Assembly (NCBI GenBank): GCA_017481725.1
Contig: JAFUOX010000022.1
Coordinates: forward strand, 4,668-68,667
Reading direction: 5' to 3'
DNA: 64,000 nt
From: Kiritimatiellia bacterium
GTDB lineage: Bacteria; Verrucomicrobiota; Kiritimatiellia; RFP12; UBA3636
The translations under genes and the position numbers were made by a program. Each line of letters opens with the position of its first letter. Positions within the stretch are counted from its first letter, which is position 1. Below, one piece after another: positions 10,860 through 61,279 of the stretch. Below the pieces are notes generated by a model. That model made no database searches. It was not told where the DNA came from and was given only the letters and a program-made list of their open reading frames with translations.

Positions 10860-12062
10860 ATGGCAAACAAAAAACGTGTAAGTAAGATAAAAGAACAGGA
10901 CGATGTCTTAGATGAAAATAAAAACGAGCGTACTCGTGTTGCTCGTTCTATAAAAGAATTTCGGTTAAGAGCAAGAATTCCTCAGAAGGAATTTGCAAAA
11001 CAGGTTGGAATGTTGCCAGCACAGCTTTGCAATGTTGAAAAGGGCAAAAATATGCCTTCTTTAAGCACAATTTGCCGTATTGCAGAGGTTTTGGGTGTTA
11101 CAGTAAATGATTTGATGTACCATAGAACCTTTAAAGATGGTCCAAAAATTGGTGATTTGCGCAAGGGAAAGAATAACTCAGCAATACTTGCAAAAAAGCT
11201 TGAAGATTATGTTTCTCCAGATGAGTTTTGTGATAGAAAATATATCCGTGTTTCAAGACCAGCTCATGGAGCTGACTATTTGACACCAGAAATAGCAAAG
11301 GCTATAGATGAGCGCCTAATAGAGTATTGTGAATTAGAGACTCGCGGACAAGTAATTCAAAAGCCATGGCTAACATTTGATTTGCCAATTCTTATAGATG
11401 ATCAAACTTCAATTGAGCATCTAACTACTCGTATTCGTACAGCATTAGGTATTGGCTCTGCTGTTGTGATGGACTATGTTCAGCTTCTTGAGACATTTGG
11501 TATCAAAGTTATTTTCTTGAAAAATATTCCTGAATTTAAATTATCAGATGAGGCATCAAATAAAACATTCCAGAGTTGTTCATTATATGATAAGGCAAAT
11601 CGTAATGCAGTTATTGTTTTGAACAATTCAATGACTGCAGAAAGAAAGCAATTCCGCCTTATTTATGAACTAGGTATTATTTATCTTTATGCAAATAATC
11701 AATATTCAATGGTTATTGAGACAAAGGAAAATCGTAGATTAGCAAAGTATTTTGCTGCTTGCTTCTTGGTTCCTCGTGATTGCTTGCTAAATGATTTATT
11801 TACGTTTGGTATTCGCCCAGGAGAGTGGACTTATGAAGTTGTCCTTGCTTTTAAGTCTCGCTTTGGTGTTTCTGCTGAATCATTTGTATATCGTTTATTG
11901 GAAATTAAACGTATTAATAAAAATATAGCAGATGATATTCTAGATAAAATTCATGATTATTATGCAAAGAATAATAATAAAGAACCAGGCGGTTCTTTGA
12001 AGCGTATTTGTGTTGAAGAAAGTTCACGTTTTGAACTTTTAAAGATATGCAATAGACGTTAA
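10860..12062 (+). CDS. XRE-family HTH regulator fused to an ImmA/IrrE-like domain lacking HEXXH
   Basis: The N-terminal HTH is IPQKEFAKQVGMLPAQLCNVEKGKNMPSLSTICRIAEVLGV. The C-terminal half follows the COG2856 core, but the metal motif reads YELGI, and no HExxH occurs anywhere in the protein. Confidence 0.6.
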   Translation: MANKKRVSKIKEQDDVLDENKNERTRVARSIKEFRLRARIPQKEFAKQVGMLPAQLCNVEKGKNMPSLSTICRIAEVLGVTVNDLMYHRTFKDGPKIGDLRKGKNNSAILAKKLEDYVSPDEFCDRKYIRVSRPAHGADYLTPEIAKAIDERLIEYCELETRGQVIQKPWLTFDLPILIDDQTSIEHLTTRIRTALGIGSAVVMDYVQLLETFGIKVIFLKNIPEFKLSDEASNKTFQSCSLYDKANRNAVIVLNNSMTAERKQFRLIYELGIIYLYANNQYSMVIETKENRRLAKYFAACFLVPRDCLLNDLFTFGIRPGEWTYEVVLAFKSRFGVSAESFVYRLLEIKRINKNIADDILDKIHDYYAKNNNKEPGGSLKRICVEESSRFELLKICNRR

Positions 12063-12220
12063 AATCGGAGTTAATTTGTTCTTTTTTACAAAAAAGGTCT
12101 AAAATAAGGCAAAAAAACAAATTTTCTATTGATTTTTTTTATAAATTTCTATAATCTTTCTTTAGTTAGGTAGATATCTTAACTCTTAAAAATAATAACA
12201 AAAAAACTTTGGGAGCCATT

Positions 12221-13381
12221 ATGGGCAAAGCATTAAAAATATTGACCGTTATTGTATTTGTACTAAGCATAGTTGCTTTTGTTCTAGGTATGATGAATTT
12301 TAATAAACGCGAGTTATTGATTGCTCGTACAAATGTACTTGAGACAAGCATCATCAAGTTAGCTGGTACACTTGAAGCTGCTGACCCTGTTTTTGAGGGG
12401 GTCTCTGATCATACTGAATATGATATTGATGAGGTTTCTGATATGCCTAATGATACTCCAGCAGAGTCTGATTTCTGGAGCACATATAAGGATGTTTATG
12501 AGGTTATGGGTGGTGCAACAATGAACCTAAATAACGATGCATCTAAGGTAACTCTTCGCCAGTATTACTATAAGGTAAACCCAGAGACAAATAAGCCAGA
12601 CTACGTCAATGGTAAACCACAGAAGAATGCTCTAGGCGTTTATAGAACTGATGGTCCTGGCACAATGAGCGAGCTTCTAGCAACAATCCAAGATCGTGCT
12701 AATAAGCAGCAGTCATTGTTGAATGAGACACGTGACCAGCTAAAGATCGTACGCGAGGAGTTAGAGAAGGTTATTGATTTATTAAATGCTGAGAAAAAGG
12801 CTCATCGTCAGAGCAAGGCTACAATTACATCTTTGAATAAGAAGATTGCAGATCTTGAGGTTCAGATTGATGGATTGAACAAGAAGATTGCTCAGCTAGA
12901 GCGTGAGAAGCTCGAACTAAACGATAAGATTTCATCTCTTGAGTCTGAGTTAGCACAGAAGAACGAGGAAATTGCTTCTCAAGCTTCTGAGATTTCAACT
13001 CTTAAGGAAGAAATCAAGCGTTTATCATCTATAGATGCTGTTGGTGCAGTTACAGCTGGTGGCAAGGATCAGACAAGCTCTGTTATCTTGACTCCTGGTA
13101 ACAAGGGCGAGGTTGTTGGTGTTAACGCAGAATATGCATTCGTAATGGTTAAGTTGACAGATGATACAATGAAGGAGCTATTGGGTCAGGATTTGGCTGG
13201 TGAATTCGCACCAATTGAGGTTATGGTTATCCGTGATGGCTTTGAAGGTCCTGCTGGCAATATCGTTACACGCCTACGTATTGATCGCATCTCTCGTGAT
13301 GGCTCTAATATCGGTTATGCTGATAACCTATATGGTTGGGAGCAGTCCCCACTTAAGGTCGGTGACAAGGTTATCTACTAA
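12221..13381 (+). CDS. membrane-anchored coiled-coil protein, function unknown
   Basis: RBS GGGAG lies 6 nt before ATG 12221; the track ORF opens at TTG 12209. One N-terminal TM helix, a ~100-aa heptad-rich segment, and a beta-rich C-terminal domain. Confidence 0.55.
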   Translation: MGKALKILTVIVFVLSIVAFVLGMMNFNKRELLIARTNVLETSIIKLAGTLEAADPVFEGVSDHTEYDIDEVSDMPNDTPAESDFWSTYKDVYEVMGGATMNLNNDASKVTLRQYYYKVNPETNKPDYVNGKPQKNALGVYRTDGPGTMSELLATIQDRANKQQSLLNETRDQLKIVREELEKVIDLLNAEKKAHRQSKATITSLNKKIADLEVQIDGLNKKIAQLEREKLELNDKISSLESELAQKNEEIASQASEISTLKEEIKRLSSIDAVGAVTAGGKDQTSSVILTPGNKGEVVGVNAEYAFVMVKLTDDTMKELLGQDLAGEFAPIEVMVIRDGFEGPAGNIVTRLRIDRISRDGSNIGYADNLYGWEQSPLKVGDKVIY

Positions 13382-22535: not shown

Positions 22536-22757
22536 ACCCTTTGCGTGCACTAGCACGCTCCAAAAGTGCTAAAAAGGGACGTAGAAACAGATGGTCGCTT
22601 GCGCTCTGGCCTTCGGCGAAACACGGAGAATAAAGAGTATCGGAGACACGGAGAGTTTTTGGGAAATATCGGAGAAAGGGGCTTCAGCCCCTTTGCGTGC
22701 ACTAGCACGCTCCAAAAGTGCATCCCGTGCTCCACGCATGCCCAACGCAATTTTCGC
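22536..22757 (+). repeat. GC-rich mosaic intergenic repeat, locus 1
   Basis: Contains the 25-nt core CTCTGGCCTTCGGCGAAACACGGAG (22603-22627) and the hairpin AAAGGGGC-TTCA-GCCCCTTT (22674-22693). A perfect 33-bp direct repeat occurs at 22536-22568 and 22688-22720. Confidence 0.85.
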
Positions 22758-29370: not shown

Positions 29371-29464
29371 ATTGACCTTTCAAAAATATGCCCTAACTCT
29401 TAAGTTTTTGTACTAATTTATAGTAACATATTTTTGAGTGTGTTTAAAGAGGAAATATGAAATC

Positions 29465-29712
29465 ACAGATGGCCGCTTGCGCTCTGGCCTTCGGCGAAAC
29501 ACGGAGCACACGTAGTGTGATTTTCCTGAGAACGGAGACACGGAGAGTTTTTGGAAATATCGTAGAAAGGGGCTTCAGCCCCTTTGACGTGCAATAGCAC
29601 GATCCTGCCTGCGTGGAGGCTACAAGGGTGGGGCTCTGCATTTCTGCGTCCCACCGTACATCACGTGCGTCACTTGTATCACGACCACAGCATCTCTGTG
29701 CTCTCTGCGGGG
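29465..29712 (+). repeat. GC-rich mosaic intergenic repeat, locus 2 (left edge of island)
   Basis: Core at 29482-29506, arm CACACGTAGTGTGATTTTCC, hairpin at 29566-29585, then GCGTCCCACCG and CATCACGTGCGTCAC modules shared with locus 3. Confidence 0.85.
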
Positions 29713-29780: not shown

Positions 29781-30632
29781 TTAATCTACAGGGATGACTT
29801 CTACATCAAATTCATCAATACCAAGTTTGTTTCGTTTATCCATAAATTTTCTTGGTAGTTTTATGCTGGTTAAACTTTTACAGTCATGAAACACATCGTC
29901 ACCGATAGTTGTTACACTATCTGGAATCACAATGCTGGTTAAACTCTTACACCTAAAGAATGCACTTTTGCCGATGGTTGTTACACTATCTAGAATTACA
30001 ATGCTGGTTAAACTCATACAACCAGAAAATGCATAGTCACCGATAGTTGTTACACTATCTGGAATCACAATGCTGGTTAAACTCGTACACCAAGAAAACG
30101 CACTTTTGCTGATGGTTGTTATACTTGATGGAATTACAATGCTGCTTAAACTAGAACAATGAGAAAATGCCCAGTCGCCGATGGTTGTTACACTATTTGG
30201 AATCACAATGCTGGTTAAATGACAACAGCTATAAAACGCATAGTCGCCGATGGTTGTTACACCTTCAGGAATTATAATGCTGCTTAAAATAAAACAATGA
30301 GAAAATGCGAAGTTGCCGATAGTTGTTACACTATCTGGAATTACAATGCTGGTTAAACCATTACAATCAGAAAACGCTCTGTCGCCTATAGTTGTAACCG
30401 GAAGATTCTTTAAATTAGAAGGTATTTTAACTTTTCCCGTTGCTTTTGCTTTTAATATTACAATACCATTACCATTGCGAGTATATTCCAATTTCATACC
30501 ATCTATCGTTTCTATATGGTTTTTGCCTTCAATAAGGTCTGAGTTTGAAACATTATAAGCACATGATGATAATGCGAAACCTACAAGTGCTAACGCCAAT
30601 AAAATTAAATATTTTTTCATATTATTCTCCAA
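29781..30632 (-). CDS. BspA-type leucine-rich-repeat lipoprotein
   Basis: Lipobox ALSSC and about eight 23-aa units of the form LTSIVIPDSVTTIGDYAFSGCxS. Confidence 0.8.
   Translation of the reverse strand: MENNMKKYLILLALALVGFALSSCAYNVSNSDLIEGKNHIETIDGMKLEYTRNGNGIVILKAKATGKVKIPSNLKNLPVTTIGDRAFSDCNGLTSIVIPDSVTTIGNFAFSHCFILSSIIIPEGVTTIGDYAFYSCCHLTSIVIPNSVTTIGDWAFSHCSSLSSIVIPSSITTISKSAFSWCTSLTSIVIPDSVTTIGDYAFSGCMSLTSIVILDSVTTIGKSAFFRCKSLTSIVIPDSVTTIGDDVFHDCKSLTSIKLPRKFMDKRNKLGIDEFDVEVIPVD
29849..30410 (-). repeat. 69-bp tandem coding repeats inside the LRR gene
   Basis: Units have a 69-nt period. An identical 48-mer GTCACCGATAGTTGTTACACTATCTGGAATCACAATGCTGGTTAAACT occurs at 29898-29945 and 30036-30083. 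Confidence 0.85.
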
Positions 30633-30882
30633 AAATAAGTATCAACCTTTTTCTATTTTTTTATTATTATATAAAAATTTAAAAATCTGTCAAATGAACA
30701 CAACCTTCATTCCATTAGGGTATTAGTATTCATGCATTGCATTTTTATTGAAACCACAAAATCCCTAAATGACACGAAAGTTGGAGCGATTTTGTAGAAT
30801 ATATCAAGTAGAATTTATAATCCACAGAATATAAAAACTTTTCGTGTGTTTCGTGGTTGCTAAAACCGCATCTCGCGTGCAC

Positions 30883-31108
30883 ACAGATTGGTCGCTTGTG
30901 CTTGAGCCTTTGGCGAAACACGGAGGACAGAGAGGAACGGAGGCACGGAGAGTTTTTGGAAAATATCGGGAAATGGGCTTCTGCCCCTTTGGCGTGCAGT
31001 AGCACGCTTCTGCCTGCGTGGAGGCTAAAAGTGCGAGGGTTGGGCTCCACGTTTCTGCGTCCCACCGGCGTCATGTGCGTCACATACACGCTTGTGTCTG
31101 AGACTAGG
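30883..31108 (+). repeat. GC-rich mosaic intergenic repeat, locus 3
   Basis: Diverged core CTTGAGCCTTTGGCGAAACACGGAG (30901-30925). The locus is colinear with locus 2 through GCGTCCCACCGGCGTCATGTGCGTCAC and abuts promoter-module copy 1. Confidence 0.8.
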
Positions 31109-31157
31109 TGCAAATAGCATCAGTTGTTTTATAAATTTACAAAATCATTGATTTTAC

Positions 31158-31186
31158 TTGCAATAATTATTGTAATTTATTATAAT
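31158..31186 (+). promoter_or_regulatory. shared promoter-operator module, copy 1 (module 31109-31202)
   Basis: TTGCAA - 17 nt - TATAAT. The perfect palindrome CAATAATTATTG (31161-31172) overlaps the -35 and spacer. The module lies upstream of the NERD gene. Confidence 0.6.
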
Positions 31187-31383
31187 TTTGGCGTTGTTTA
31201 ATTCGAGAGGATATTGATTTTTCGTGTCTGTATTAAAGATATAAATGCGGAAATGTGTCAAAATGTAAAGAAAATCCTTTATTATTGACAAATGTCCACA
31301 CCAAGGCGAAAACTGCAATGATTGCCAATATTAGTGTATCTTAATATTTTGAATAACTATTATTACGGAAAGAGTTTTTTACA

Positions 31384-32013
31384 ATGTTTGACTTGATTGC
31401 TTTCTTAATAATTATTTATGTTGTTGTTTTGATTTTAAAGTCTCCTACGATTAAAGGTAAATTTGGTGAGGGGCTAGTTTCGTTTTGTTTTTATAGGTAT
31501 TTAGATAAGAGTAAATATCGAGTTTTAAATAATGTAATGATTAGTGACAATATGGGAGGAACTACCCAAATAGATCATATTGTGCTATCAAAATATGGTA
31601 TATTTGTTGTTGAAACTAAAAACTATAAGGGATGGATTTATGGTGATGCTAAATCCAGAACTTGGACACAAGTAATTTATAGGAAGAAGACAAAATTCCA
31701 AAATCCTTTTTTTCAAAACTACAAACACATTCAATGTTTAGCTAATACAATATGTGTTCCTCAAGAGTGTCTCCATCAAATCGTATTTTTCGCAGGAGAG
31801 TGTGAATTAAAGACAAAAGATAGGATGCCAGAGACAACCTTCGAGCGTGGAAGTGTGATGTGTAATTATATAAAATCATTTACTCATGAATGTTTTGACT
31901 ATTTACAGGTTGAAGCAATAGAAAAGCGTATCTTAAATGCCCAGACAGAAAACACTTTCCTAAACAGGCATGCCCATAAGTCTTATGTTCGCAATATCGT
32001 CAAAAAGAGATAG
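31384..32013 (+). CDS. membrane-anchored NERD (nuclease-related) domain protein
   Basis: N-terminal TM helix, then GEGLVSF...TTQIDHIVLSKYGIFVVETKNYKGWIYG...WTQ, the canonical NERD core. Confidence 0.8.
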   Translation: MFDLIAFLIIIYVVVLILKSPTIKGKFGEGLVSFCFYRYLDKSKYRVLNNVMISDNMGGTTQIDHIVLSKYGIFVVETKNYKGWIYGDAKSRTWTQVIYRKKTKFQNPFFQNYKHIQCLANTICVPQECLHQIVFFAGECELKTKDRMPETTFERGSVMCNYIKSFTHECFDYLQVEAIEKRILNAQTENTFLNRHAHKSYVRNIVKKR

Positions 32014-32069
32014 TTTTGTGTAAATTCTTTGCGAAAATCTCAAATAAGCAACTTGGTCTTCTTTTTTCG

Positions 32070-32242
32070 CTAGTGCTCTGGCCTTCGGCGAAACGCGGAG
32101 CACACGTAGTGTGATTTTCCTGAGAACGGAGACGCGGAGGGGTGCTGGGCAATTGTTAATATTTGCTTGCACAATTCTCCCTTGTCCTCCGCAAAAATCA
32201 CACTATGTGTGTCCGTGTTAAGCGAAAGCAACGAGTGAGAAT
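32070..32242 (+). repeat. GC-rich mosaic repeat, locus 4 (long-hairpin variant)
   Basis: Core at 32076-32100. Arm 32094-32119 pairs with 32191-32217 at about 22 of 26 positions with one indel. An inner GCGGAGG/CCTCCGC pair is present. The locus abuts promoter-module copy 2. Confidence 0.85.
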
Positions 32243-32291
32243 TGCAAATAGCATTATTTGTTTTATAAATTCACAAAATTATTGATTTTAC

Positions 32292-32320
32292 TTGCAATAA
32301 TTATTGTAACTTATTATAAT
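32292..32320 (+). promoter_or_regulatory. shared promoter-operator module, copy 2 (module 32243-32395)
   Basis: TTGCAA - 17 nt - TATAAT with palindrome CAATAATTATTG at 32295-32306; upstream of tcmP and the radical-SAM gene. Confidence 0.6.
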
Positions 32321-32364
32321 TATGGCGTTGTTTAATATTAAAGTATTGAACGGTTCAGTTTTGC

Positions 32365-32393
32365 TTGTTAAATTGTTAGTAAAGTGGTAAAAT
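32365..32393 (+). promoter_or_regulatory. possible second (extended -10) promoter inside module copy 2
   Basis: TTGTTA - 17 nt (ending TGG) - TAAAAT. The same layout is conserved in copy 3. Confidence 0.35.
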
Positions 32394-32515
32394 GGAGGTG
32401 CTTGAAAAATGTAAATGTATAGTGTAATGTTTATTCGTAAAGGTTAGTTTTTTATGTTTGTTAAATAAAATGATTTTCATAATATTTAGTTTTATTTTTT
32501 TATATAGAGGGTTTT

Positions 32516-33652
32516 ATGGATTCAAAAACATTTCATGGTCAAGTATTTGATGATGCAACAAAAACAAAATTAGAGTTGTATCGTATTTATTTAAACGAGT
32601 GGCTTCCTGTTTTTTTGAACGGTGTAAATGCAAGTTATATTAAAAACATTAATATAGTTGATTTTTTCTGTGGTCCAGGCATGGATTCAGATGGTGTAGC
32701 TGGTAGCCCTTTAATAGCTCTAAATGCTGTTTCTGATGCATTAGAAAAGAATCGAGACCGATTGTCTCCTTATGTTCGTGTGAATCTTTATTTTAATGAT
32801 ATTGATCAGTCTGTTATTTCGAAGCTTAAAGATGTGCTTCTAGAGCAAAAATATGATGATAATAGGATTAGTATGTTTTGTTCAAGTAAACCATTTCATG
32901 AATGTTATAATAGTTTTGCTTCACTAAAAGATGGTATACTACGGCAGGATTGTTCTGCAAATTTTCTTTTTATTGACCAATTTGGGGTAAAAGAGGTTTC
33001 TCAAGAAATTTTTCACGATATGCAACAGATTAGTCGAACGGATTTTATGTTTTTTATTGCGGCATCTATTGTTAATAGAATGCATAATCAGCCAAGTATC
33101 AAGGATAAAATTCCAGTTTTGACTGAGAAAGAAACTCAACGCATAAATGCAAAAAATGTTGTTCGTATCCTTGCTGATGCTTATAAGCGATGGAAGATTG
33201 GTGGTAAAGATTTTTATTTAGGACAATTTGCACTACGTAAACCTAAAAGTCCAAATGTAAATGGATTGATTTTTGGGTCAAGTAATATATTAGGGTTAGA
33301 TAAGTTTTTGCAAGCAGCATGGAAAGTTGAACCAGTTTTTGGTGAGGCTAATTATTCTGTTGATGATAGTGATTTAAGACCAGAAGCACCTTTTTTGTTT
33401 GATGAATTAAATGTGCCCACTCGTACAAAACAATTTAATAAAAATTTAGAAGATGCAATTTGTACAAAACAAATAAAAACGAATCATGAAATTTACTATT
33501 TTTCTTTGCAACAAGGTTTTTTACCTAAACATGCGAGAGAGGTTGTAAAAGAATTACAAAAAAGGAAGGTTTTGCTTAATTCAAAAATTTCAATTTCAAA
33601 TGATTGTTTGAAAAGTTGTCCTATTGAATTAGAAATAAGAGGTGAAGTATGA
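32516..33652 (+). CDS. tcmP: three-Cys-motif partner protein TcmP-like (methyltransferase-like fold)
   Basis: N-terminal TKTKLELYRIYLNEW, SAM-motif-I-like VDFFCGPGMDSDG, then FNDID and FLFIDQFG. There is a 4-nt ATGA overlap with the next gene. Confidence 0.6.
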   Translation: MDSKTFHGQVFDDATKTKLELYRIYLNEWLPVFLNGVNASYIKNINIVDFFCGPGMDSDGVAGSPLIALNAVSDALEKNRDRLSPYVRVNLYFNDIDQSVISKLKDVLLEQKYDDNRISMFCSSKPFHECYNSFASLKDGILRQDCSANFLFIDQFGVKEVSQEIFHDMQQISRTDFMFFIAASIVNRMHNQPSIKDKIPVLTEKETQRINAKNVVRILADAYKRWKIGGKDFYLGQFALRKPKSPNVNGLIFGSSNILGLDKFLQAAWKVEPVFGEANYSVDDSDLRPEAPFLFDELNVPTRTKQFNKNLEDAICTKQIKTNHEIYYFSLQQGFLPKHAREVVKELQKRKVLLNSKISISNDCLKSCPIELEIRGEV

Positions 33653-34389
33653 ATATAATTTATGAACCTAAAGGACGGGCAAAAGAATATTCAGATTTGG
33701 CTTGTAATGTGTATATGGGGTGCCCTCATGGATGTACCTATTGTTTTGCACCTGGATGTATGCGAAAAAAGGCAGAGGAGTGGCATGGACAAACGTATAT
33801 TCGCTCAAAAGCGCTTGAATTATTTAGAAAGGATGCAAAAAAACTTTATGAAACACATGATAAACGACCAATTCTTTTTAGTTTTTTAAGTGATCCTTAT
33901 CAACCATTAGAGGGAGAACTGCATTTAACAAGACAATGCTTGCAGATTGTCAAAGAGTATGGTTTATCCAGCAAAATTTTAACAAAAGGTAAAGCGGAGT
34001 ATATTGAACCTGATTTAGAACTGATAAAGGCTGCTGGTACTGAGCTTGGAATAACGATTTCGTTTATGGATGATGATAAACGTCGTATTTGGGAGCCAGA
34101 AGCTGCACCTATTGAGGAAAGAGTAATAATTTTAAAAAAAGCCCATCAGATGGGTATATATACGTGGGTAAGCCTTGAACCAGTCATAGACCCCAAAGAG
34201 GCTTTACGAGTGATTAGTGAGCTTTCACAATTTGTTGATTATTGGAAAATAGGCAAACTTAATCATAATAAAGAGGTAGAGAAATCAGTCGATTGGTATG
34301 GTTTTCGTGTAAAAGCAGAGGAACTACTAGAAAAAATAGGTGCTAAATATTATATTAAGGAAGATTTACGCAAGGCAAAAAAAAATTAA
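33649..34389 (+). CDS. radical SAM protein with N-terminal Cx3Cx2C (SplB/DNA-photolyase-like)
   Basis: YMGCPHGCTYCFA lies 20 aa from the N-terminus; 246 aa, the size of a partial TIM barrel. Confidence 0.7.
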   Translation: MNIIYEPKGRAKEYSDLACNVYMGCPHGCTYCFAPGCMRKKAEEWHGQTYIRSKALELFRKDAKKLYETHDKRPILFSFLSDPYQPLEGELHLTRQCLQIVKEYGLSSKILTKGKAEYIEPDLELIKAAGTELGITISFMDDDKRRIWEPEAAPIEERVIILKKAHQMGIYTWVSLEPVIDPKEALRVISELSQFVDYWKIGKLNHNKEVEKSVDWYGFRVKAEELLEKIGAKYYIKEDLRKAKKN

Positions 34390-35298
34390 CAATATCTGAG
34401 AGACAAGAACATACCAGATTGTTTTAACCGAGCGCCAATAACCATCCTACGTCTACTTTCTACAGGGCTAGAGCCAGTGAAAAGCCCGTCTTCAATGTAT
34501 TTATCGTATTGCGTTTTGTCAACATTGTCCTTAAAGTATTTTAAGGTTTTACTCATGTCATTTCTCCTTGATTTCGGACATGCTTCTTCCGCTGCTTTTT
34601 TGTACGGGCCTGCTTCTGCCGAACGTGCGACTTCTTCAACAAGATCTGGTGTGTAACGCCCAATAAGCCCCATTTGTTCGTCCTACGGGTAATGTCCACA
34701 ACGATTGATTTTGTCGTAGTAGTATGTCCTTTTGATAGTGCCGACATGCCCGAACCTACTGATAATGTCTATGTTCTTAGTGCCTGCATTACGTTCTCCA
34801 GGTTTGGGCGTATACTTTACCTTTGTAGCTTCAGATTGAAGGATTGCTGAGAGAAGTTTACGACAAATTCCAGTAGCAGCTTTCTCCATAGCATGTTCAA
34901 GTTGCGAAGTGCATCCAATGCCGTCTTTCGCTATTGAATCTAATGCCGCATTTGCTATTGCTTCAAGTTCCGTACCGCCTTCAAAGCAGATTTGGTGTAC
35001 TTTTTTTTGAGGTCGATTCTGCAGCAAGAATTGACTCAGCATCACTGCGGGACAATTCCATGAGAAGCTCCTTTGCACGCTTACCACCGTTGACAGCCTC
35101 CTCAAACTCGGCAAGCCGTTCTTCTGGTATATGCATTGCGTGGTTTTTGCCATCCTGCCACCACTGCAGGTTATGATAGACGGCAATTGTACCGTCTGCA
35201 AGTTTTTTGCGGTTTTCACAAATTTTACCCTGAACTGCGAACGGAATGTTCTCTAGTTTCCCTAATATTTCTGTCCTGCGGCGTATTTCTGTTTTCAT
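34386..35298 (-). pseudogene. decayed ISKra4-like transposase
   Basis: The remnant spans three ORF pieces. There is a frameshift between 34981-35298 and 34683-35219, and an in-frame TAG at 34683-34685 (CGHYP*DEQMGLIG). The catalytic core is missing, but the C-terminal SSPVESRRRMVIGARLKQSGM signature is retained. Confidence 0.6.
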
Positions 35299-35402
35299 GT
35301 TCTATGGTATAATAAATAATATTACAAAAATCAAAGTTTTTTATAAAGTTTTTGCAGAAAAATCTCTTTGCACCCTTAAATTCACAAAATTATTGATTTT
35401 AC

Positions 35403-35431
35403 TTGTAATAATTATTGTAATTTATTATAAT
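35403..35431 (+). promoter_or_regulatory. shared promoter-operator module, copy 3 (module 35378-35505)
   Basis: TTGTAA - 17 nt - TATAAT with palindrome variant TAATAATTATTG. Upstream of the small ORF, NUDIX and helicase genes. Confidence 0.55.
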
Positions 35432-35474
35432 TTTGGCGTTGTTTAATATAAAATATTGAACGGTTCAGTTTTGC

Positions 35475-35503
35475 TTGTTTTGTCCCTAAAAAGATGGTAA
35501 AAT
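35475..35503 (+). promoter_or_regulatory. possible second (extended -10) promoter inside module copy 3
   Basis: TTGTTT - 17 nt (ending TGG) - TAAAAT, at a position equivalent to 32365-32393. Confidence 0.35.
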
Positions 35504-35708
35504 AAGAGAAATTTGGTTAACAATTACCTTTGGTAATTAGTTTTGTGAGAGTAGTAAATAATTTGGTCTTTAGGGTGGGCTTTGTCGTGCGGCTTTCACG
35601 GCTTTCCAGAGCCTTAGATGCCCGCACTCCAAGGCGAGCCGTTTAACAACAAATGTAAAGGCCAAAGGTGGCTTATTGGGTATTTTTTGAGAAAATGGGG
35701 AAAGATAG

Positions 35709-35945
35709 ATGATTAGAACATCCTTCGCAGAATTCATTTTTTCTACTAACACAAATGGTAGTGGTAAGGCCGCGTCTTATATACGTGCGCTCGATATGCT
35801 TGGTCCGATTTTGACGAAGCATTATCCTGATGCTGCAGCAAAAAGTTTTTTTATAGTTTGTGAAGGACAAAAGATGTCGCTTCCAGTTAAATTCCTACCA
35901 TCTCAGAAGTTGCTCGAAAAGCATAGGGAATTGCTGGTGGGGTGA
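35709..35945 (+). CDS. 78-aa hypothetical protein (may be a gene remnant)
   Basis: The ORF ends 3 nt before the NUDIX gene. No domain was recognised. Confidence 0.3.
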   Translation: MIRTSFAEFIFSTNTNGSGKAASYIRALDMLGPILTKHYPDAAAKSFFIVCEGQKMSLPVKFLPSQKLLEKHRELLVG

Positions 35946-35948
35946 AAA

Positions 35949-36344
35949 ATGTTTTATGGTAATGTGATAGAAGTGGTTGGAGCCATTATTAAGGATGGTG
36001 ATAAGTATCTTATCGGACAGCGGCCGGCGCATAAGTCGCAGGGTGGTTTGTGGGAGTTTATGGGCGGGAAGATCGAGCCTGGGGAAACTCCTGAAGAGGC
36101 GCTTAAGCGCGAGTGTCTTGAAGAGTTGGCGCTAGAAATTGAAAACGAGCGGATTATTGATTCTGTTGTGCATGAATATTCAGAAAAGACAATTCGTCTT
36201 ACATTAATTGAATGTAATCCGAAGAATGGATCAGTGCCGCAAGCATTGGAACATCAGGAGATTCGCTGGGTAACGGTATATCAAATGGGAATGCTTGAAT
36301 TTGCGCCGGCAGACCAGAAACTGATATATAAACTTTTTCGTTAA
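35949..36344 (+). CDS. MutT-type NUDIX (d)NTP pyrophosphohydrolase
   Basis: Nudix box GGLWEFMGGKIEPGETPEEALKRECLEELAL; 131 aa. Confidence 0.8.
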   Translation: MFYGNVIEVVGAIIKDGDKYLIGQRPAHKSQGGLWEFMGGKIEPGETPEEALKRECLEELALEIENERIIDSVVHEYSEKTIRLTLIECNPKNGSVPQALEHQEIRWVTVYQMGMLEFAPADQKLIYKLFR

Positions 36345-36386: not shown

Positions 36387-39170
36387 ATGGCAAATCAATT
36401 TTTGACTAATTACACAGAAGTGAAATTTCTTGATAAGCTGAAAGAAAACCTGCGCAGATGCAAGTCATTCTCATTTTCAGTCAGCTTTATAAAAAAGGCG
36501 GGCCTTGTTCTGCTGTTTAAGGATATTGAAGCTGCTGTTGAGCGTGGAGCGCAGGGACGTATTATCACCTCTACATATCAGAACTTTACTGATATTGAGT
36601 CGATAAAGAGCTTCTTTGCACTTCAATGCAAACATACTAATTTCGAGTGCCATCTTGATTACGAGTGCTTTCATGATAACAAGTATTCCACTCTTGGTTA
36701 TCATTCAAAAGGATACCTTTTTGAGTTCGACGATTTCTATGAGGTAATTGTAGGTTCTTCTAATATTACTCGTTACGCATTGCTCAAAAATATCGAGTGG
36801 GATGTAGTTGTTCGTGAAAGCAAGCCTGAAGTGTATAGTCAAGCATATGCAGAATTTGATGATAAATGGGAGGCAACGCATCTTCTGAATAGTGAAATTA
36901 TCAATCGGTATTCTAGTAAACTCAACTTTGCGATTGAACGTTGGGATATGGATTATGATCTTACCCCAAGCAGCATAAAGCCCAATTTTATGCAACGAAA
37001 GGCGCTGAAAGAACTGAACCGTTATAGAGCAATAGGCACAAATCGTGCTCTCGTTGTAGCGGCTGCGGGAAGTGGTAAGACTTATCTTGCCGCATTTGAT
37101 GCGCTCAATTTCGATCCGAAGCGACTTTTGTATATTGTTCACGAAGGATCAATTCTGAAAAAGTCACTTGAAACATTTTCGGAAGTATTCGGGAATCGTG
37201 TAACCTATGGTATTTTTAGCGGAGAACATAAAGAGATAGAAGCGAATTTTATATTCGCAACCAACATTACGATGTATAAATCTCTCGAGTTGTTTGCTAA
37301 GAATGAGTTTGACTATATTATTATAGACGAATGCCATCACGCAACCGCGGAAACATACAAGGAGATCATTGAATATTTTGAGCCTGAATTCTTGCTTGGA
37401 TTAACGGCTACGCCGGAACGTATGGACAATCAGGATGTGTTCGCTTTGTTCGACAAGAATGTGCCGTATGAGCTGCGTTTGCGCGATGCTATTATCAATG
37501 AACTTGTTGTGCCGTTCAAGTATTATGGTGTCCGAGACACACTTGTCGATTACGGACTCACTAAGAGTGAAGAACGCCGTATGATTGCACAGCTCGCAAA
37601 TGAGGAGCATGTCGAATTTATATCATCGCAAATCGAATCACATAGAGGTCAAGGGAAGTTGAAGGCCATTGCTTTCTGCCGTAATGTTACACACGCAAGA
37701 ATGATGAGCGAAGCAATGGGAGAACGATATAAAACTGCCTATTTGACAGGTAGAAACGATATCGGTGAGCGTATTCGCGCTTATAACGATTTGCAGAACG
37801 ATGATGCAGATCTCGAAATTCTGTTTACTGTTGATATTCTAAATGAAGGTGTTGATATTCCCGGCGTCAATATGGTGTTGTTTCTTCGTCCTACAGAATC
37901 CTCGACAATCTTCATTCAGCAGCTCGGTCGTGGTTTGCGTAAATACGATAATAAGCCACACGTAACTGTTCTTGATTTCATTGGTAATAGTTATAAAAGA
38001 AGTGTTCAAATTGCATTTGCATTAGGCAGCCTTTCGAGAAACTTAATTCTTGAAAAGAAGCTGATGCAACAGCTTGTTCGTGATGATTTTGAGGCACTTG
38101 GACTTAGCGAATATGGTGTTGAGATTAATGTTGATGACCTAAGTAAAGAAGAAATTATTAATTTTATAGAAAATGAAAACTTTAACAGCCTATCATATTT
38201 GAAACAGGACTATTTTAATTTCAAAAAGTACATTAATTCGGAGTTCTATCCGAAGCATATGGACTTTTTGAATAACGACTGCGCACCTGATTTGCTTAGA
38301 TTTATGAGTATCAAAATCGGTGGTAAAAAGAATTTTTCTTACTATAACTTCCTTCGTGGAATTGAAGAAGAAAATCTTCCGGCATTCTCGGAAAAACAAG
38401 TGTTGTTTGCAAATTATCTCTCTGCACAGCTTCCGCTTGTTAGAAAGCATGAGTATCTGATTTTTGATTGTCTGCTAAAGGGGATTGATGATATTGCAGA
38501 AATCAAAAAGTTTTTGCATCAGAATATTGGCGGGTGTAGAGAAGATGAAATTCAGCACGCTCTCGATTATATATATAAGAATGGCTATGTAAGTAAGGAA
38601 GAGGATAAGCTTAGGCTTTCCGTAGAGATTGACGAAGATTTCAAGGAGTACATTCTTGATTTATTGTCATATGGGTTGACCCGTTTTAGTATAGATTTTG
38701 GCGATGAATCTGATTTTAAGTTGTGGCAGAGTTATCGTATGGATCAGGTGCAGATGAAGTTTTTGCAGAATCCTCAGTATAATCAGGTCGGTACATATTA
38801 TTATGGTAAAGAAGTTGTGATTTTTGCATCTCTAAAAAAGGATTTGGCAGAGGAAGATAGGCTAAATTATAACGATAAGTTTTTAGAGCCTGATCTATTC
38901 CAGTGGGAGAGTATGGCCAACGTTTCAGCTGCCGATGTCGAGAAGCAACAAAAAAGCGAGCATGCTTATCTGTTTATCCGTAAGGTGTCTAACGAAAACG
39001 GTATCGTTTTGCCCTTTATTTATGTTGGGAAAGGAAAGATGACCAATCCTCGTAAACAGGTGAAGTCCGATAAAGCAAAAGGCAAGGATGTTATAACTTA
39101 TCTTTACGATATAAAAATGGAGAACGAATTGCCAGAATACTTACAGTATGATTTTGGATTGAGTAAATGA
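36387..39170 (+). CDS. PLD(HKD)-nuclease-like + SF2 DEAD/DEAH helicase + DUF3427-like C-terminal domain protein
   Basis: HSKGYLF...VGSSNIT (HxK...GSxN), Walker A AAAGSGKT, IIIDECHH, motif VI QQLGRGLR. The C-terminal segment FQWES...YLFIRKV...PFIYVGKG resembles DUF3427 as I recall it. Confidence 0.85.
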   Translation: MANQFLTNYTEVKFLDKLKENLRRCKSFSFSVSFIKKAGLVLLFKDIEAAVERGAQGRIITSTYQNFTDIESIKSFFALQCKHTNFECHLDYECFHDNKYSTLGYHSKGYLFEFDDFYEVIVGSSNITRYALLKNIEWDVVVRESKPEVYSQAYAEFDDKWEATHLLNSEIINRYSSKLNFAIERWDMDYDLTPSSIKPNFMQRKALKELNRYRAIGTNRALVVAAAGSGKTYLAAFDALNFDPKRLLYIVHEGSILKKSLETFSEVFGNRVTYGIFSGEHKEIEANFIFATNITMYKSLELFAKNEFDYIIIDECHHATAETYKEIIEYFEPEFLLGLTATPERMDNQDVFALFDKNVPYELRLRDAIINELVVPFKYYGVRDTLVDYGLTKSEERRMIAQLANEEHVEFISSQIESHRGQGKLKAIAFCRNVTHARMMSEAMGERYKTAYLTGRNDIGERIRAYNDLQNDDADLEILFTVDILNEGVDIPGVNMVLFLRPTESSTIFIQQLGRGLRKYDNKPHVTVLDFIGNSYKRSVQIAFALGSLSRNLILEKKLMQQLVRDDFEALGLSEYGVEINVDDLSKEEIINFIENENFNSLSYLKQDYFNFKKYINSEFYPKHMDFLNNDCAPDLLRFMSIKIGGKKNFSYYNFLRGIEEENLPAFSEKQVLFANYLSAQLPLVRKHEYLIFDCLLKGIDDIAEIKKFLHQNIGGCREDEIQHALDYIYKNGYVSKEEDKLRLSVEIDEDFKEYILDLLSYGLTRFSIDFGDESDFKLWQSYRMDQVQMKFLQNPQYNQVGTYYYGKEVVIFASLKKDLAEEDRLNYNDKFLEPDLFQWESMANVSAADVEKQQKSEHAYLFIRKVSNENGIVLPFIYVGKGKMTNPRKQVKSDKAKGKDVITYLYDIKMENELPEYLQYDFGLSK

Positions 39171-39183
39171 AAATGGGGCTTTA

Positions 39184-39540
39184 CGTGAGTTCTTGATAAA
39201 TGCAATCATTCATCGCGATTATTTTCTGGAAAATGCTCCTATCAAGTTTTGCGAGTAAAAAAAGAACAGGATAGAGATTTCTAATCCCGGAGGGCTTTTC
39301 GGTCGAGCGAAACCCGATAATTTCCCGTTTGTAAATGATTATAGAAATCCAATGCTGGCAGAGGCTATGAAAGTGCTTGGTATGGTGAATAAGTATAATC
39401 GCGGCATTGCCAAGGCGAACAAGGAATTGGAAAAGAATGGTAATCCCAAGGCGCAATTTGATGTCAATGAGCAGACAGAGTTTCGGGTTACTATTATTTC
39501 AAACGGCGAAAGTGGCCAAATAAACATCAAATATGGATAG
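39184..39540 (+). pseudogene. 3' remnant of an AlbA_2/HATPase_c_4-type (Schlafen-like) ATP-binding regulator gene
   Basis: The frame reads REFLINAIIHRDYFLENAPIKFCE*KKNRIEISNPGGL...RNPMLAEAMKVLGMVNKYNRGI, with an in-frame TAA. It begins 14 nt after the helicase stop and has no N-terminal half. Confidence 0.55.
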
Positions 39541-39712: not shown

Positions 39713-40165
39713 ATGAATGCTGAATTATGCAATATGTGCATGGTAATGGACAATGAAGGTCGCGTGTTAGTGCAGGAGCGTTTACCCAAGCCAACTAACC
39801 CTTGGTGTGGTTTGACCTTTCCTGGAGGACATTTGGAGCATGGAGAATCAATTGTTGAATCAACAATTAGAGAGATGAATGAAGAAACAGGTTTGATAGT
39901 TTCAAATTTACAAAATTGCGGCTTTGTTCAGTGGTATAACCCAGCAAAAGATCTTCAATATATTGTTTTTCTATTTAAGACAAATACCTATACTGGAACA
40001 CTCAAGGATTCTGCCGAAGGCAATGTCCGTTGGATGACGCTAGATGAAATGCGTAGCGGCAACCTCGCACCAAATATGGATCGCTATATCGATGTCATAC
40101 TTAATGATAACCTACCTCAAGTCTATGGAGTTGTTGGGTCTGGTCTCACCTCATGGGAAGGCTAA
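39713..40165 (+). CDS. NUDIX hydrolase
   Basis: Nudix box PGGHLEHGESIVESTIREMNEETGL. ATG 39713 is preferred; the ORF opens at 39656. Confidence 0.75.
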   Translation: MNAELCNMCMVMDNEGRVLVQERLPKPTNPWCGLTFPGGHLEHGESIVESTIREMNEETGLIVSNLQNCGFVQWYNPAKDLQYIVFLFKTNTYTGTLKDSAEGNVRWMTLDEMRSGNLAPNMDRYIDVILNDNLPQVYGVVGSGLTSWEG

Positions 40166-40213
40166 CCAAAATCCATCATACTTATATTTCGTAGTTTCAA
40201 TTACGCCATAAAT

Positions 40214-40440
40214 CTCTCCGTGTTTCGCCGAAGGCTAGAAGCGAGAGCGTTTAAATCGTTTCACTCATTGCTTACGCTCAACACGGACACACGAAGTGTG
40301 ATTTTCACGGAGGTAATGAAGAAAAGTGCAAGCAATAATTACCCTAGAAAACTCTCCGCGTCTCCGATCCTCTCTGTCCTCCGTGTTTCGCCGAAGGCCA
40401 GCACGCGAGTGCGATGCACGTGATGCTGGTGGCATCACGC
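40214..40440 (-). repeat. GC-rich mosaic repeat, locus 5 (reverse orientation; right edge of island)
   Basis: Reverse-complement cores lie at 40216-40240 and 40379-40403. Positions 40261-40313 are the reverse complement of the locus-4 right arm. Confidence 0.85.
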
Positions 40441-40441
40441 A

Positions 40442-47760: not shown

Positions 47761-48116
47761 AATAATTTAGATATTTATTGCCGATTTAGATTTCACGCAA
47801 AAATTTTCTATATATTATAGTATAAGAGGGGATATTTTGAAAGCAAAAACAGAATAAGTAAAATTGCGTAGGTGCACGAGACGACGTGATGCACGAGATG
47901 CACGCGATGCCAAAGGGACGCAGAGACGCGGAGGACGCAGAGGTCGCAGAGCCATGACACCGAAAAAACACTAGCGGAATGAACTTTGCCTTGGCTATTG
48001 CTTTATCTATCGAAGCAATTTGGCAAATCTCATCCACTAGTGTGCTCGAACAGAAGCTTATTAAGATGCGGAGGTGATGCACGTGGTATTCTTTTTTATT
48101 AGAGAAGGCTAGAAAG

Positions 48117-48314: not shown

Positions 48315-48752
48315 GGACGTTAGACGAGAGACAACGCTGACGTGAGACAATTAGACATTTAGACGCTGTGACGCGAGACGTTAGACGTTGAGATTCCTCT
48401 GACGTTAGACGCTAGACAATTAGACGCCGCATCGCATTGACATGCGAGCATTGGACAAGAGACGTGAGACGCGAGACGCGAGAGGTTCCGACGCGAGACA
48501 ATTAGACGTGAGAACTCTCTTTGAAGTGAAACGCTACTAACCTATCTTCCGTCTAATTGTCTGTGGGTCTCTTGTCCTTGTCTCACGTCTCGCGTCTCTT
48601 GTCTCATGTCCAAATGGGCGTGTCAACGCCTGCGGGATGCGTGTCAACGCATCGGATGGTCTCACGTCTAACCGTCTAATTGTCCGTTCAACGTCTCACG
48701 TCTTATTGTCTATCGGTTGTCTCACGTCTAACGTCGTTCAACCGTCTAGCGT
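48315..48752. repeat. ~440-bp degenerate palindrome made of TTAGACG/GAGACG words
   Basis: The left arm (48315-48512) is rich in TTAGAC, GAGACG and GTGAGAC. The right arm (48549-48752) carries the complements GTCTAA, CGTCTC and GTCTCAC in mirrored order. For example, GGACGTTAGACG matches the reverse complement GGACGCTAGACGG, and CAATTAGACG matches CGTCTAATTG next to the centre. Confidence 0.8.
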
Positions 48753-48989
48753 CCTTTGCGTCTCTGCGTCCCTTCTTCGCACTTCTAGCCATCACGTACA
48801 TCAGCTCCGCGTCGCAGCGCCCCTTTTACGCACTTTTGAAGCGTGCTAGTGCAAGCAAAGCGACTGAAAGTCGCTTCTCCAAACTCTTCCTACACGCTTG
48901 CGAGATGCACGTGACGCCGGTGGGACGCAGAGACGCGGAGGCCGAAAAAACTAGCGGAATAAGGTTTATACTGTTTCTGTTATTGCTTT

Positions 48990-58444: not shown

Positions 58445-58785
58445 CGGATGAGTGGTGGTCGCTGACGCTCTAGCCTTCGGCGAAACACGGAGAAAAAAGA
58501 GGTAAGGAGGCACGGAGGGGTTGCTGGGGGTATTGTTCCTTGCACAATTCTTCCTTGTCCTCCGCAAAAATCACACTATGTGTGTCCGTGTTAGGCGAAA
58601 GCAATAAGTGCGAAGAAGGGACGCAGAGACGCAGAGGACGCAGGGCTTGCGTGGTGGCTTATATGGAGGTGTCGATAATAACACTACCGCTTGTTGTTTC
58701 CTTGGTTATTGCTCTATCTTTCAGAAGCAATAAGGAAACTGCCAAGCGCTAGTGTGTTCGACCACAATGAAGGCAGAGCCGCTAA
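58445..58785 (+). repeat. GC-rich mosaic repeat, locus 6
   Basis: Core CTCTAGCCTTCGGCGAAACACGGAG (58468-58492) and the same long-hairpin layout as locus 4. It also carries GGGACGCAGAGACGCAGAGGACGCAG and CCTTGGTTATTGC...GCAATAAGG...GCCAAGCGCTAGTGTG (58700-58756). Confidence 0.85.
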
Positions 58786-60039
58786 GCTGATGCACGTGGT
58801 GGTCATCATGATGCGGGCGACTATAATCCACGCTCACACCTTGACGTTGCTCAGGTTTTGCTAATGGCTTATGAGCTGGCACCACAGAAGTTCTATGATG
58901 GTCAGTTAAATATCCCTGAGAAGGCAAATGGTATTCCTGATATTGTAGATGAGGCTCTATGGGCAATTCGCATTTGGAATGGTTTGTATAATGATAAGGA
59001 TGGCTCAGTATATGAAGGTACAGAATCTGATGGTGATCCTAACTTTATTCAATCAGTAGAGCTAGATCCTAAGGGTGACTTTGCTTGGGCTAAGACATCA
59101 CGTGCAGCACTAAATTATGCTGCTGTGATGGCACGTACTGCTCGCATCCTAAAGACTTGCAAGATTACTCAGCAGCCAACGTATGAGTCAGAAGAGGAAG
59201 CTGCATTACAACCAAAGCTAAGCGCAGATGCTTATCTTGCTCGTGCAAGAAAGGCATTTGAGTGGGGTGTAGCAAATCCTCCAAAGGGTCTTAAGAAGTC
59301 TGCTCAATATGCTCAGCAGCATGTTACATGTCTTGCTTATGCAGCAGCAGAGTTATATCGCACAACAGGTGAGAAGAAATATCATGATGCATTTAAGGCA
59401 AATGTTCCTTGGGGTACAAAGACAAATGTATCTCTAGCTGTTGATAATACATGGGATTTGTCTTGGGCTGCTTATGCATACGCATTTTTGCCAGATAATA
59501 TGGCTGACCCTGTATACAAGGAGCAGGCAATTGCTTCAATCAAGAAGGAAGCAGATATGTATTTGGTTGGTTCTGGTCGTATGGCATACAAGTTTGTTCG
59601 TCATTCCTTTGCTCCTATCTCATGGGGTACAGGTGCATACCAGAATTTCTGCTTGCCAATTATGGCAATGTGGGGCTTAACAAAAGACCAGTATTATTAT
59701 GATTGGTTGATCAGAACCTGCGATAATACATTGGGAGCAAATCCAATGTGTCTGTCTTGGGTTATTGGTATTGGTGAGCGTACTGTTCATGCTCCATTGC
59801 ACAACAGCCGTTATAGTCCATTTGGTAAACCAGTTAATGGTCAGCAGGTTGAAGGTCCTTACATGAATGTAGGTGGCTACAATGTTCCTGAGACTATGTA
59901 CCCACGTCCATCAAGAAGCAATGCAATTATGTATCAATTCGTAGATGCTCACTTTGCAATTGCTATGGATGAGGGTGTTGTAAACAATCAGTCTAAGACT
60001 ATGGCTGTATTTGGCCTGCTACTTCCTGATAAGAAATAA
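58786..60039 (+). pseudogene. 5'-truncated GH9 glycoside hydrolase
   Basis: The frame opens at 58786 straight out of the repeat and reads ADARGGHHDAGDYNPR (the GH9 GGWxDAGD motif), then DIVDEALWAIRIW. About 200 or more aa of a normal GH9 N-terminus are absent. The only in-frame starts are TTG 58858 and ATG 58864. Confidence 0.6.
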
Positions 60040-60787: not shown

Positions 60788-60910
60788 CAAGGCCAACTTA
60801 CAAGCGCTAGTGTGGGTGTAACCCATGTACTAGAAGTGCGAGGGTGCATTGCTTCCTTGGTCATTGCAAAATCTATCGAAGCAATAAGGTAACAGCCAAG
60901 CGCCTGTGTG
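60788..60910. repeat. GC-rich mosaic repeat, locus 8
   Basis: CAAGCGCTAGTGTG (60801-60814) and CCTTGGTCATTGC...GCAATAAGG...GCCAAGCGCCTGTGTG (60855-60910) match modules at 47989-48044 and 58700-58756. Confidence 0.8.
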
Positions 60911-61279
60911 TACAGCCCACCAAGGCTTTTGAGCATGGGGCTGGATGCAGAATACTTTGGTTTTTCGGGAGGATACCTAGATGCAGCAAGTGAGTTAGAA
61001 ATATAATTTTCTTGATTTATTTGTGCTATTTTGAGATATTTATTCATATCAATGGATACTATTATTGTGTTATATTATAATTCGTATAAAGCATTATTTT
61101 TACATAAATATAGAAAGCCATTGTTATTTACCTAAATTTTGGAAGTTTTATATATTCATAAGCTTTTAATATAAATGGTTTATCCAAGATTTCTTATTTA
61201 AGTGCTGAATTTTGGTTAAATATATTTAAGGCTTTTACGTGATATTGGAAATAATTTACACAACGAGAAACTACTTATT

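Follow-up and report, generated by a model that had tools for sequence, protein, structure and literature searches.

Three copies of one module and the genes behind them

We examined 64,000 nucleotides (nt) of a Kiritimatiellia genome (contig JAFUOX010000022.1; this whole stretch is called the window below), in which a short AT-rich intergenic module with a promoter-like core recurs in direct orientation, each time ahead of different defence-type genes. The rest of the window is ordinary chromosome, encoding CysS, IspF, MurJ, Adk, TsaB/TsaD and glycoside hydrolases, among others. The module copies lie between two flanks that are conserved between strains, a BspA-type leucine-rich-repeat (LRR) gene on the left (29781–30620, − strand) and a NUDIX150 gene followed by TsaD on the right (39713–40165, + strand).

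An earlier note, made from the letters of the window, had described three direct copies that share TTGCAA (TTGTAA in copy 3), 17 nt and TATAAT, with a leader common to copies 2 and 3. Repeat searching and self-BLAST of the window recovered all of this, with slightly wider limits for the copies (31109–31217, 32243–32395 and 35377–35511). The repeat search returned one direct family of three members (31109–31202, 32243–32336 and 35354–35447) and a second family confined to copies 2 and 3 (32339–32393 and 35449–35503). Self-BLAST aligned copy 1 with copy 2 at 89% identity (31109–31217 with 32243–32349), copy 2 with copy 3 at 88% over 128 nt (32266–32393 with 35377–35503), which bears out the common leader, and copy 1 with copy 3 at 90% (31132–31217 with 35377–35459); over shorter stretches of these three pairs, identity was 94% over 94 nt, 95% over 104 nt and 96% over 71 nt, respectively. 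A 55-nt core occurred three times (0, 2 and 1 mismatches) and nowhere else within the window; no match appeared in 100 dinucleotide shuffles, and none is expected by chance. The arrangement is not an assembly artefact, since the three copies stand together, at 99.995–100% identity, on contigs assembled from three independent samples, and Logan short-read contigs end at the module, as a true repeat would predict.

Copy 1 (31109–31217, + strand) lacks the shared leader and ends about 16 nt past the predicted transcription start, at the end of GGCGTTGTTTAAT. Its promoter-like core, TTGCAA-17-TATAAT (31158–31186, +), stands 198 nt, counted from the end of the −10 element, before the ATG of the gene for a NERD nuclease-related domain protein (31384–32013, +; PF08378, 3.9e-32). 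Copy 2, with the leader (32243–32395, +), is placed ahead of genes for a TcmP/GMT-wHTH protein (32516–33652, +; TIGR04474; PADLOC candidate PDC-M30A, 1e-97) and a radical SAM protein (33649–34389, +; Pfam/NCBIfam domain scans), and its core, again TTGCAA-17-TATAAT (32292–32320, +), ends 196 nt before the TcmP ATG. Copy 3, also with the leader (35377–35511, +), is truncated at its 5' end, where the TGCAAATAGCAT part is missing, and abuts a decayed insertion sequence (IS) remnant. Its core, TTGTAA-17-TATAAT (35403–35431, +), ends 278 nt before a 78-aa open reading frame (ORF; 35709–35945, +), which is followed by genes for a NUDIX hydrolase (35949–36344, +; PADLOC candidate PDC-S07) and a PLD-ResIII-helicase-DUF3427 protein (36387–39170, +; type IV methyl-directed restriction model mREase_IV, 4.8e-101).

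The earlier assignments of this cargo were correct and could be refined in two respects. Protein comparison identified the 78-aa ORF as the remnant of an HNH_2 endonuclease gene that retains both the N- and the C-terminal end of the enzyme, and a decayed ISKra4-family transposase gene (34386–35298, − strand; NF033572, 1.5e-13, C-terminal part of the model only), frame-shifted and internally deleted, lies between cassettes 2 and 3. The claimed difference in composition also held, with about 32% GC in cassette 2 and about 40% in cassette 3. The NERD protein and the 78-aa ORF showed no similarity in an all-against-all BLASTP comparison, TcmP belongs to Pfam/NCBIfam families other than theirs, and homology between the module copies ends before the ORFs; the downstream coding sequences are therefore not paralogous.

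Module copies in island variants and related genomes

Public assemblies were queried with the flanking TsaD protein to find variants of the locus. The interval from the BspA-like gene to NUDIX150/TsaD is a defence island that varies between strains, and at least three gene sets, here types A, B and C, occur in it behind identical TsaD proteins; PADLOC, Pfam and NCBIfam hits mark its genes as defence-type, and its content varies within conserved flanks. Type A, the window, reads module-NERD, module-TcmP-radical SAM-(IS remnant), module-(HNH remnant)-NUDIX-type IV restriction endonuclease (REase). Type B, found in at least four samples, reads module-NERD, module-(YhcG-N::HNH chimera)-Trypsin_2-Dcm-HNH_2-HATPase_c_4. 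Type C carries Z1-DUF4420-AIPR-Dcm, and its left end lay beyond the first contig; we predicted a module copy there, and a longer contig (L046, 96% identical to L017) then yielded one at 800–888, after a GC-rich repeat and on the same strand as the following HATPase_c_3-Z1-DUF4420-AIPR-Dcm genes. The NUDIX150 and TsaD genes are present in all three types. Exact-protein look-ups of NERD, TcmP, NUDIX131, GH39 and BspA returned type A contexts only.

Among the genome collections searched, the module matched one Kiritimatiellia and one Verrucomicrobia metagenome-assembled genome (MAG) only. In one MAG species (L001), the module and leader are followed by a YhcG/DUF1016 nuclease gene, a Schlafen-type helicase, NUDIX and HNH_2; in the other (L002), they stand before a YhcG/DUF1016 gene split by a PDDEXK_3 gene, at a locus that adjoins purA, while the module locus of the window lies between BspA and TsaD. 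Eight distinct copies were thus available (window copies 1–3, two in type B, and one each in type C, L001 and L002). All eight lie upstream of, and on the same strand as, defence-type genes, each heads the first gene of its block, and none lies inside or after a block. With seven different defence-type gene sets behind eight copies, across three island variants and two MAG species, the proposal of a conserved module with changing cargo was strongly borne out.

Some of this cargo is debris. The last 41 residues of the 78-aa ORF behind copy 3 share 85% identity with the tail of the chimeric ORF of type B (L015 18071–18595) and 58% with the C-terminus of the HNH_2 protein of L001. The type B chimera, a 174-aa 'DUF1016_N' protein, joins a YhcG N-domain to this HNH tail. 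The 78-aa ORF and the chimera are debris of one ancestral operon.

Comparison of types A and B located the exchange points. The two types are 99% identical in the BspA region and 95% identical over 31054–32369, which covers module copy 1, NERD, a GC-rich repeat and module copy 2 through the leader motif GCTTGTT; they are unrelated between 32369 and 39173, 92% identical from 39173 onward and 98% identical beyond 40398, so that divergence rises toward the island. The left divergence point, 32369, lies inside the leader of copy 2. The right junction of the variable segment (39173–39540, +) begins where type B homology resumes at 39173, directly after the stop codon of the REase gene and inside the 151-aa HATPase_c_4 gene of type B, which is intact there and survives in the window as a 3' remnant, a 62-aa fragment at 39352–39540. 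A 3.1-kb segment present in type A and not in type B consists of the 5' untranslated region (UTR) specific to copy 2, TcmP, radical SAM and the IS remnant, and is bracketed by 104-nt direct repeats of the module at 95% identity (32266–32369 and 35377–35479).

The edges of the module differ between copies. On the left, seven of the eight copies start at or near TGCAAATAGCAT, the type C version being slightly diverged (CACAAATAGTAT); copy 3, beside the IS remnant, begins only from AAATTCAC. On the right, the shared sequence of copy 1 (types A and B alike) and of the type C copy stops after GGCGTTGTTT; copy 1 retains the following AAT and the type C copy lacks it. Copy 2 extends through GCTTGTT, the sequence common to copy 3, L001 and L002 runs up to GGTAAAAYAAGA, and that of the second type B copy up to GGTAAAATAA. 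A repeat search and the comparison of these edges found no terminal inverted repeats or target-site duplications bounding the module. Several nested edges and the lack of a nearby recombinase gene point to general or illegitimate recombination and not to a site-specific system.

These data bear on the possibility that the module is a site-specific recombination site or the end of a mobile element, such as an att/attC-like site or the terminus of a miniature inverted-repeat transposable element (MITE), served by a dedicated recombinase. Copies at cassette boundaries, direct repeats flanking the TcmP-radical SAM segment, a transposase remnant abutting copy 3 and a chromosomal position that changes with the species (beside purA in L002, in the BspA–TsaD interval here) would fit such a site. 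However, no integrase, recombinase or intact transposase was found among the window ORFs scanned (at least 100 aa) or in any island variant, no integrase or recombinase in related loci and no RAYT gene among the window ORFs scanned. The nested edges offer no single crossover point, and the module has no inverted termini or target duplications and does not fold as an attC-like hairpin, the window copies showing no significant fold. The ISKra4 remnant is the sole transposase trace in the island and occurs in type A only. The module had no match among IMG/VR viral contigs, and distant BLAST against phage and plasmid collections gave one insignificant 40-nt match in one collection and none in the other, so a mobile-element origin is not supported. 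Scans of JGI metagenome contigs with two different invariant stretches gave 0 matches, and the window holds no tRNA gene as an integration target. We regard a dedicated recombination site as a remote prospect.

The module is also separable from its cargo. The NERD gene of L002 is 93% identical in DNA to that of the window and has an unrelated upstream region. We considered whether the module is the native yhcG promoter and rejected this: none of 13 loci with YhcG homologues at 75–92% identity to the L001 protein carries the module, and at the closest of them (L033, 88% DNA identity) homology with L001 starts about 8 nt before the ATG. Joint travel of the module with TcmP-radical SAM was likewise rejected, since TcmP identity falls from 100% to 60% at the nearest relative, which belongs to a high-GC organism and lacks the module. 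The distant TcmP relative and the 32% GC of cassette 2 indicate a foreign acquisition behind a resident promoter module. That nearest TcmP-radical SAM relative (L047 1093–8226) lies directly upstream of a HATPase_c_3-Z1-DUF4420 system; since the same type of system fills the type C island, this suggests a recurrent association between TcmP-radical SAM and Z1 systems.

Several further observations were made at these loci. Related defence loci contain tandem pairs of YhcG/DUF1016 paralogues (L035 6001–8784; L038 4897–7140), which are interleaved with 125-aa ORFs in L035 and L036 and often lie next to RhuM or methyltransferase genes. Types B and C have an AAA_14/DUF4143 ATPase gene between NUDIX150 and TsaD, and the window does not. 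One strain with an identical TsaD (L016) has wholly different genes past TsaD and no island (11238 onward, compared with window 40166–40441), which points to a more extensive rearrangement, or to another junction, at the site.

Promoter-like core, palindrome and leader

In all copies, the two hexamers score 10 of 12 against the sigma-70 consensus at 17-nt spacing. TATAAT is invariant in eight of eight copies, the spacer length is kept even in the most diverged copy, and the −35 hexamer shows a single change among the eight (TTGTAA). Across the window, 14 of 35 sigma-70 sites scoring at least 10 of 12 are intergenic, compared with 4.9 expected, and nine of these 14, the three module copies included, aim at the start of a gene on their own strand no more than 350 nt away; because of this intergenic enrichment and the aim at gene starts, the sigma-70 consensus is informative in this genome.

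The earlier note had drawn attention to a 12-bp palindrome overlapping the −35 element and spacer, and had likened it to a repressor operator. The palindrome itself was present, as CAATAATTATTG in copies 1 and 2 and as TAATAATTATTG in copy 3, but the operator interpretation gained no support. Perfect 12-bp palindromes numbered 30 in the window against about 22 expected, and a 153-nt sequence with the composition of the module has a probability of 0.19 of containing one or more. The dyad is broken in two of the eight copies, by a change of the first C to T in copy 3 and of A to G in the type C copy (CAATGATTATTG), both uncompensated. We therefore set the palindrome aside as operator evidence. 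Domain scans of the variants and their flanks brought up no regulator gene of the helix-turn-helix (HTH) or WYL kind; the nearest DNA-binding (HTH) ORFs of the window, at 5342–5650 and 10860–12062, are at least 19 kb off and have no similar palindrome near them. Given a palindrome at chance level, uncompensated breaks and no adjacent regulator gene, the claim that a single repressor co-regulates the cassettes found no specific support.

A promoter-operator regulon, in which one trans-acting repressor at the CAATAATTATTG dyad would co-repress all cassettes until a signal arrives, nevertheless has points in its favour: the dyad overlaps the −35 element and spacer in every copy, a common promoter sequence would automatically bring common control, and defence operons are often under dedicated regulators, such as BrxR/CapW (PMC9122601), CapK-CapS (PMC13373217) and crlRNA-guided Cas (bioRxiv 10.1101/2024.12.27.630466). 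Weighed against the chance-level frequency, the broken symmetry and the distance of any candidate regulator, such a regulon seems unlikely, although it is compatible with a reusable promoter and could be an extra layer upon it.

One of the distant HTH genes has a distinctive structure. It encodes an HTH_3 (XRE) domain fused to Peptidase_M78 (ImmA/IrrE-like; 10860–12062), is followed by a gene for a coiled-coil protein (the pair spanning 10860–13381), and sits in an AT-rich patch at 9–13 kb with 35% GC, about 19 kb from the island. The fusion may be a stress- or phage-responsive regulator; no connection between this locus and the module was seen.

A leader of about 75 nt is common to five copies and can form two hairpins. 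It might thus act as an RNA device, a 5' stabiliser, an attenuator or a site for recruiting antitermination factors in the manner of JUMPstart/ops leaders. The predicted fold is significantly stable in L001 (z=−4.7) and L002 (z=−3.3), a TAAAAT to TAAAAC change turns a G-U into a G-C pair in hairpin 2, the UTRs are unusually long, and the type C UTR contains a terminator-like hairpin. On the other side, the window copies gave z=−0.4 and −1.5, which are not significant; the five closely similar sequences hold one compensatory pair, with a covariation term of −0.32 kcal/mol; and copy 1 and the type C copy have no leader at all. Against Rfam, the whole window gave nothing at gathering thresholds; when the island and the type C UTR were scanned by E-value, the microRNA and small RNA families that came up were all at chance level. 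We consider a functional leader RNA very doubtful.

Three smaller candidates in the leader and UTRs were also set aside. The second, extended −10 promoter that had been proposed within the leader is weak and not conserved: its −35 element matches at three of six positions in copy 3, and its −10 element is TAAAAC in L001 and L002, where the critical final T is lost. For a conserved leader peptide, the alignment offers only an 8-codon frame that overlaps the −10 element and has no ribosome-binding site. A 14-nt motif, GGCTTTCCAGAGCC, lies within about 45 nt of homology between the type C UTR (L046 1179) and the UTR of window copy 3 (35600); we rejected it as a shared element, since the homology is short, Rfam gave no match and the window copy showed no sign of structure.

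A putative reusable promoter and its relation to known systems

On balance, we think it probable that the module is a lineage-specific, reusable promoter of sigma-70 type with a short conserved leader that would be transcribed, belonging to the class of putative mobile promoters and heading the defence operons of the island. It looks like a promoter and recombination anchor that spread by general recombination, and not like a proven repressor switch. The repeat itself, where and how it lies, its independence of the cargo, the variability of the island and the breakpoints are observed directly; promoter activity, insulation by the hairpins and recombination through the module are inferences. 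The earlier suggestion of a portable promoter or recombination module is in agreement with the breakpoints at and inside the module and with the 104-nt bracketing repeats, its promoter half being deduced from the hexamers.

RNA polymerase would start about 7 nt after the invariant TATAAT, near GGCG, and would read through a long 5' UTR (190–280 nt) into whichever defence genes follow. Upstream GC-rich hairpin repeats probably block transcription arriving from the cassette before. All cassettes open with the same 70–150 nt, and the copies could thus supply homology for general (RecA-type or illegitimate) recombination, by which incoming cassettes would be added or swapped behind a ready-made promoter. 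The three island types, and the 104-nt repeats around the TcmP-radical SAM-IS segment, could have arisen by such exchange.

Several observations weigh against this reading. The chance of a hexamer match of at least 10 of 12, from dinucleotide shuffles of each copy, is P=0.07–0.10, and promoter activity is predicted from the consensus match. The −10 elements of the module copies lie 196–278 nt before the start codon, compared with 31–57 nt for ordinary genes of the window, so gene-proximal promoters may do the real work. A 70-nt core is almost invariant overall across copies; its conservation therefore does not single out the hexamers and is compatible with a promoter without proving one. Between species, module identity is 93–95% and that of coding DNA (NERD) is 93%, and since the module is no more conserved than coding DNA, selective constraint is not demonstrated. 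Copies matching the exact pattern number one per genome in two related representative genomes. In type C, the module is separated from the first gene by a strong terminator-like hairpin and a T9 run (L046 1203–1255), so a simple promoter-to-operon arrangement may not hold for every copy.

Some of these points would be expected if the copies were neutral leftovers, remnants of segmental duplication and deletion in a decaying island whose real promoters lie nearer the genes. The island is rich in debris (the IS remnant, the HNH remnant, the YhcG::HNH chimera and the HATPase_c_4 fragment), and both the long distances to start codons and the coding-like identity between species agree with this. 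Leftovers, however, would not be expected to keep the right orientation in eight of eight copies, always at the head of a block and never inside or after one, nor an invariant −10 element and fixed spacing even in the most diverged copy; and 88–96% identity between paralogues with unrelated flanks is unexpected without constraint or gene conversion. Neutral origin of all copies thus appears quite improbable to us, and we retain the reusable promoter as the preferred explanation.

The GC-rich repeats deserve separate mention. One lies directly upstream of copy 1 (30876–31083, +) and belongs to a window-wide repeat family; another, self-complementary, lies directly upstream of copy 2 (32067–32241, +), with a hairpin of −78 kcal/mol (z=−5.2) that may plausibly serve as a terminator or insulator after NERD. 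Such repeats directly precede window copies 1 and 2, both type B copies, and the copies of L001, L002 and type C. The family has about ten copies, in both orientations, in a window of about 38% GC, namely 22537–22721, 29440–29673, 30876–31083, 32067–32241 and 40262–40409, and further 47894–48087, 48316–48735, 48749–48943, 58456–58800 and 60849–60920. The copy at 48316–48735 is a 420-bp self-complementary region, and related GC-rich repeats also occur in L001, L002 and L046. The family is REPIN-like; no RAYT gene was found in the window, where the scan was made. We rejected the idea that the module is itself part of this family, as five other repeats of the window have no module after them.

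Promoter reuse, defence-island hotspots and portable modules with regulator genes are already known. Putative mobile promoters were described by Matus-Garcia, Nijveen and van Passel (2012; PMC3575422) as non-coding sequences ahead of unrelated genes of one genome that match each other at 80% identity or more across 50 nt or more, in the region from −150 to −50 relative to the start codon; they are shared between related taxa, have no attached mobile element, and their mobilisation mechanism was unknown (PMC3575422). The module reaches these values within one genome (94–96% over 71–104 nt) ahead of non-paralogous coding sequences. It differs in lying about 180–330 nt upstream of start codons in the window, outside the −150 to −50 region (in L001 and L002 it lies at about −60 to −230), and in that its copies cluster in one defence island, one per cassette, at strain breakpoints and with a shared leader that is presumably transcribed. 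Correia elements, ERIC and REPIN (cited in PMC3575422) are likewise short intergenic repeats able to give promoters to neighbours, and REPIN-like GC-rich hairpins adjoin two of the three module copies in the window; unlike Correia and MITE-type elements, the module is bounded by neither terminal inverted repeats nor target duplications, and it is not scattered through the window. The BrxR/CapW WYL repressors (PMC9122601) and CapK-CapS (PMC13373217) similarly place one regulatory unit upstream of many defence systems, but those units carry a regulator gene and an inverted-repeat operator, whereas the module is cis DNA only, without a significant or conserved dyad.

The island resembles known defence-island hotspots in its conserved flanks (BspA-like; NUDIX150/TsaD), in having different systems in each strain and in divergence rising inward, and differs from them in an internal, repeated, promoter-like module that stands where each system begins. 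In integrons, most cassettes lack a promoter and are transcribed from Pc. The island shares with integrons a tandem, same-orientation series of unrelated cassettes, a repeated element between them and strain-variable content. It differs in that no intI was found, in the lack of an attC-type hairpin, in imprecise junctions, and in a repeat that stands at the 5' end and is AT-rich and promoter-like. An integron-like site-specific mechanism is unlikely. Our literature searches found no description of a cis-only module that heads every unrelated system of an island and coincides with strain exchange breakpoints.

These observations touch on how islands express and co-ordinate unrelated, potentially toxic defence systems, and how newly arrived systems come to be expressed at once. 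Known answers are portable regulator genes (BrxR/CapW, CapH-CapP and CapK-CapS), H-NS silencing and CRISPR-like guide RNAs. If the preferred reading is true, a cis-only module would be a simple alternative: all incoming systems would come under one ready-made promoter, hence under one regulation, and cassettes would be easier to swap. The module would also provide a well-bounded example of promoter reuse with comparative evidence on how copies spread, which that literature has so far lacked. A bolder form, which we rate as rather improbable, is an integrase-free 'plug-and-play' defence array, in which the module would be both the single regulatory input for a trans factor (protein or guide RNA) and the homology anchor that captures cassettes and instantly expresses them. 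This would amount to an integron-like cassette system built on a promoter in place of an attC site. As the host belongs to the uncultured Kiritimatiellae, the module serves at present as a hypothesis to be tested and as a search image for further genomes.

Two minor features were noted at the left flank. The BspA-type LRR gene contains 69-nt (23-aa) tandem repeats, in seven in-register copies at 64–83% identity, and a perfect TTGACA-16-TATAAT lies at 30666–30693 on the − strand, 46 nt upstream of this gene.

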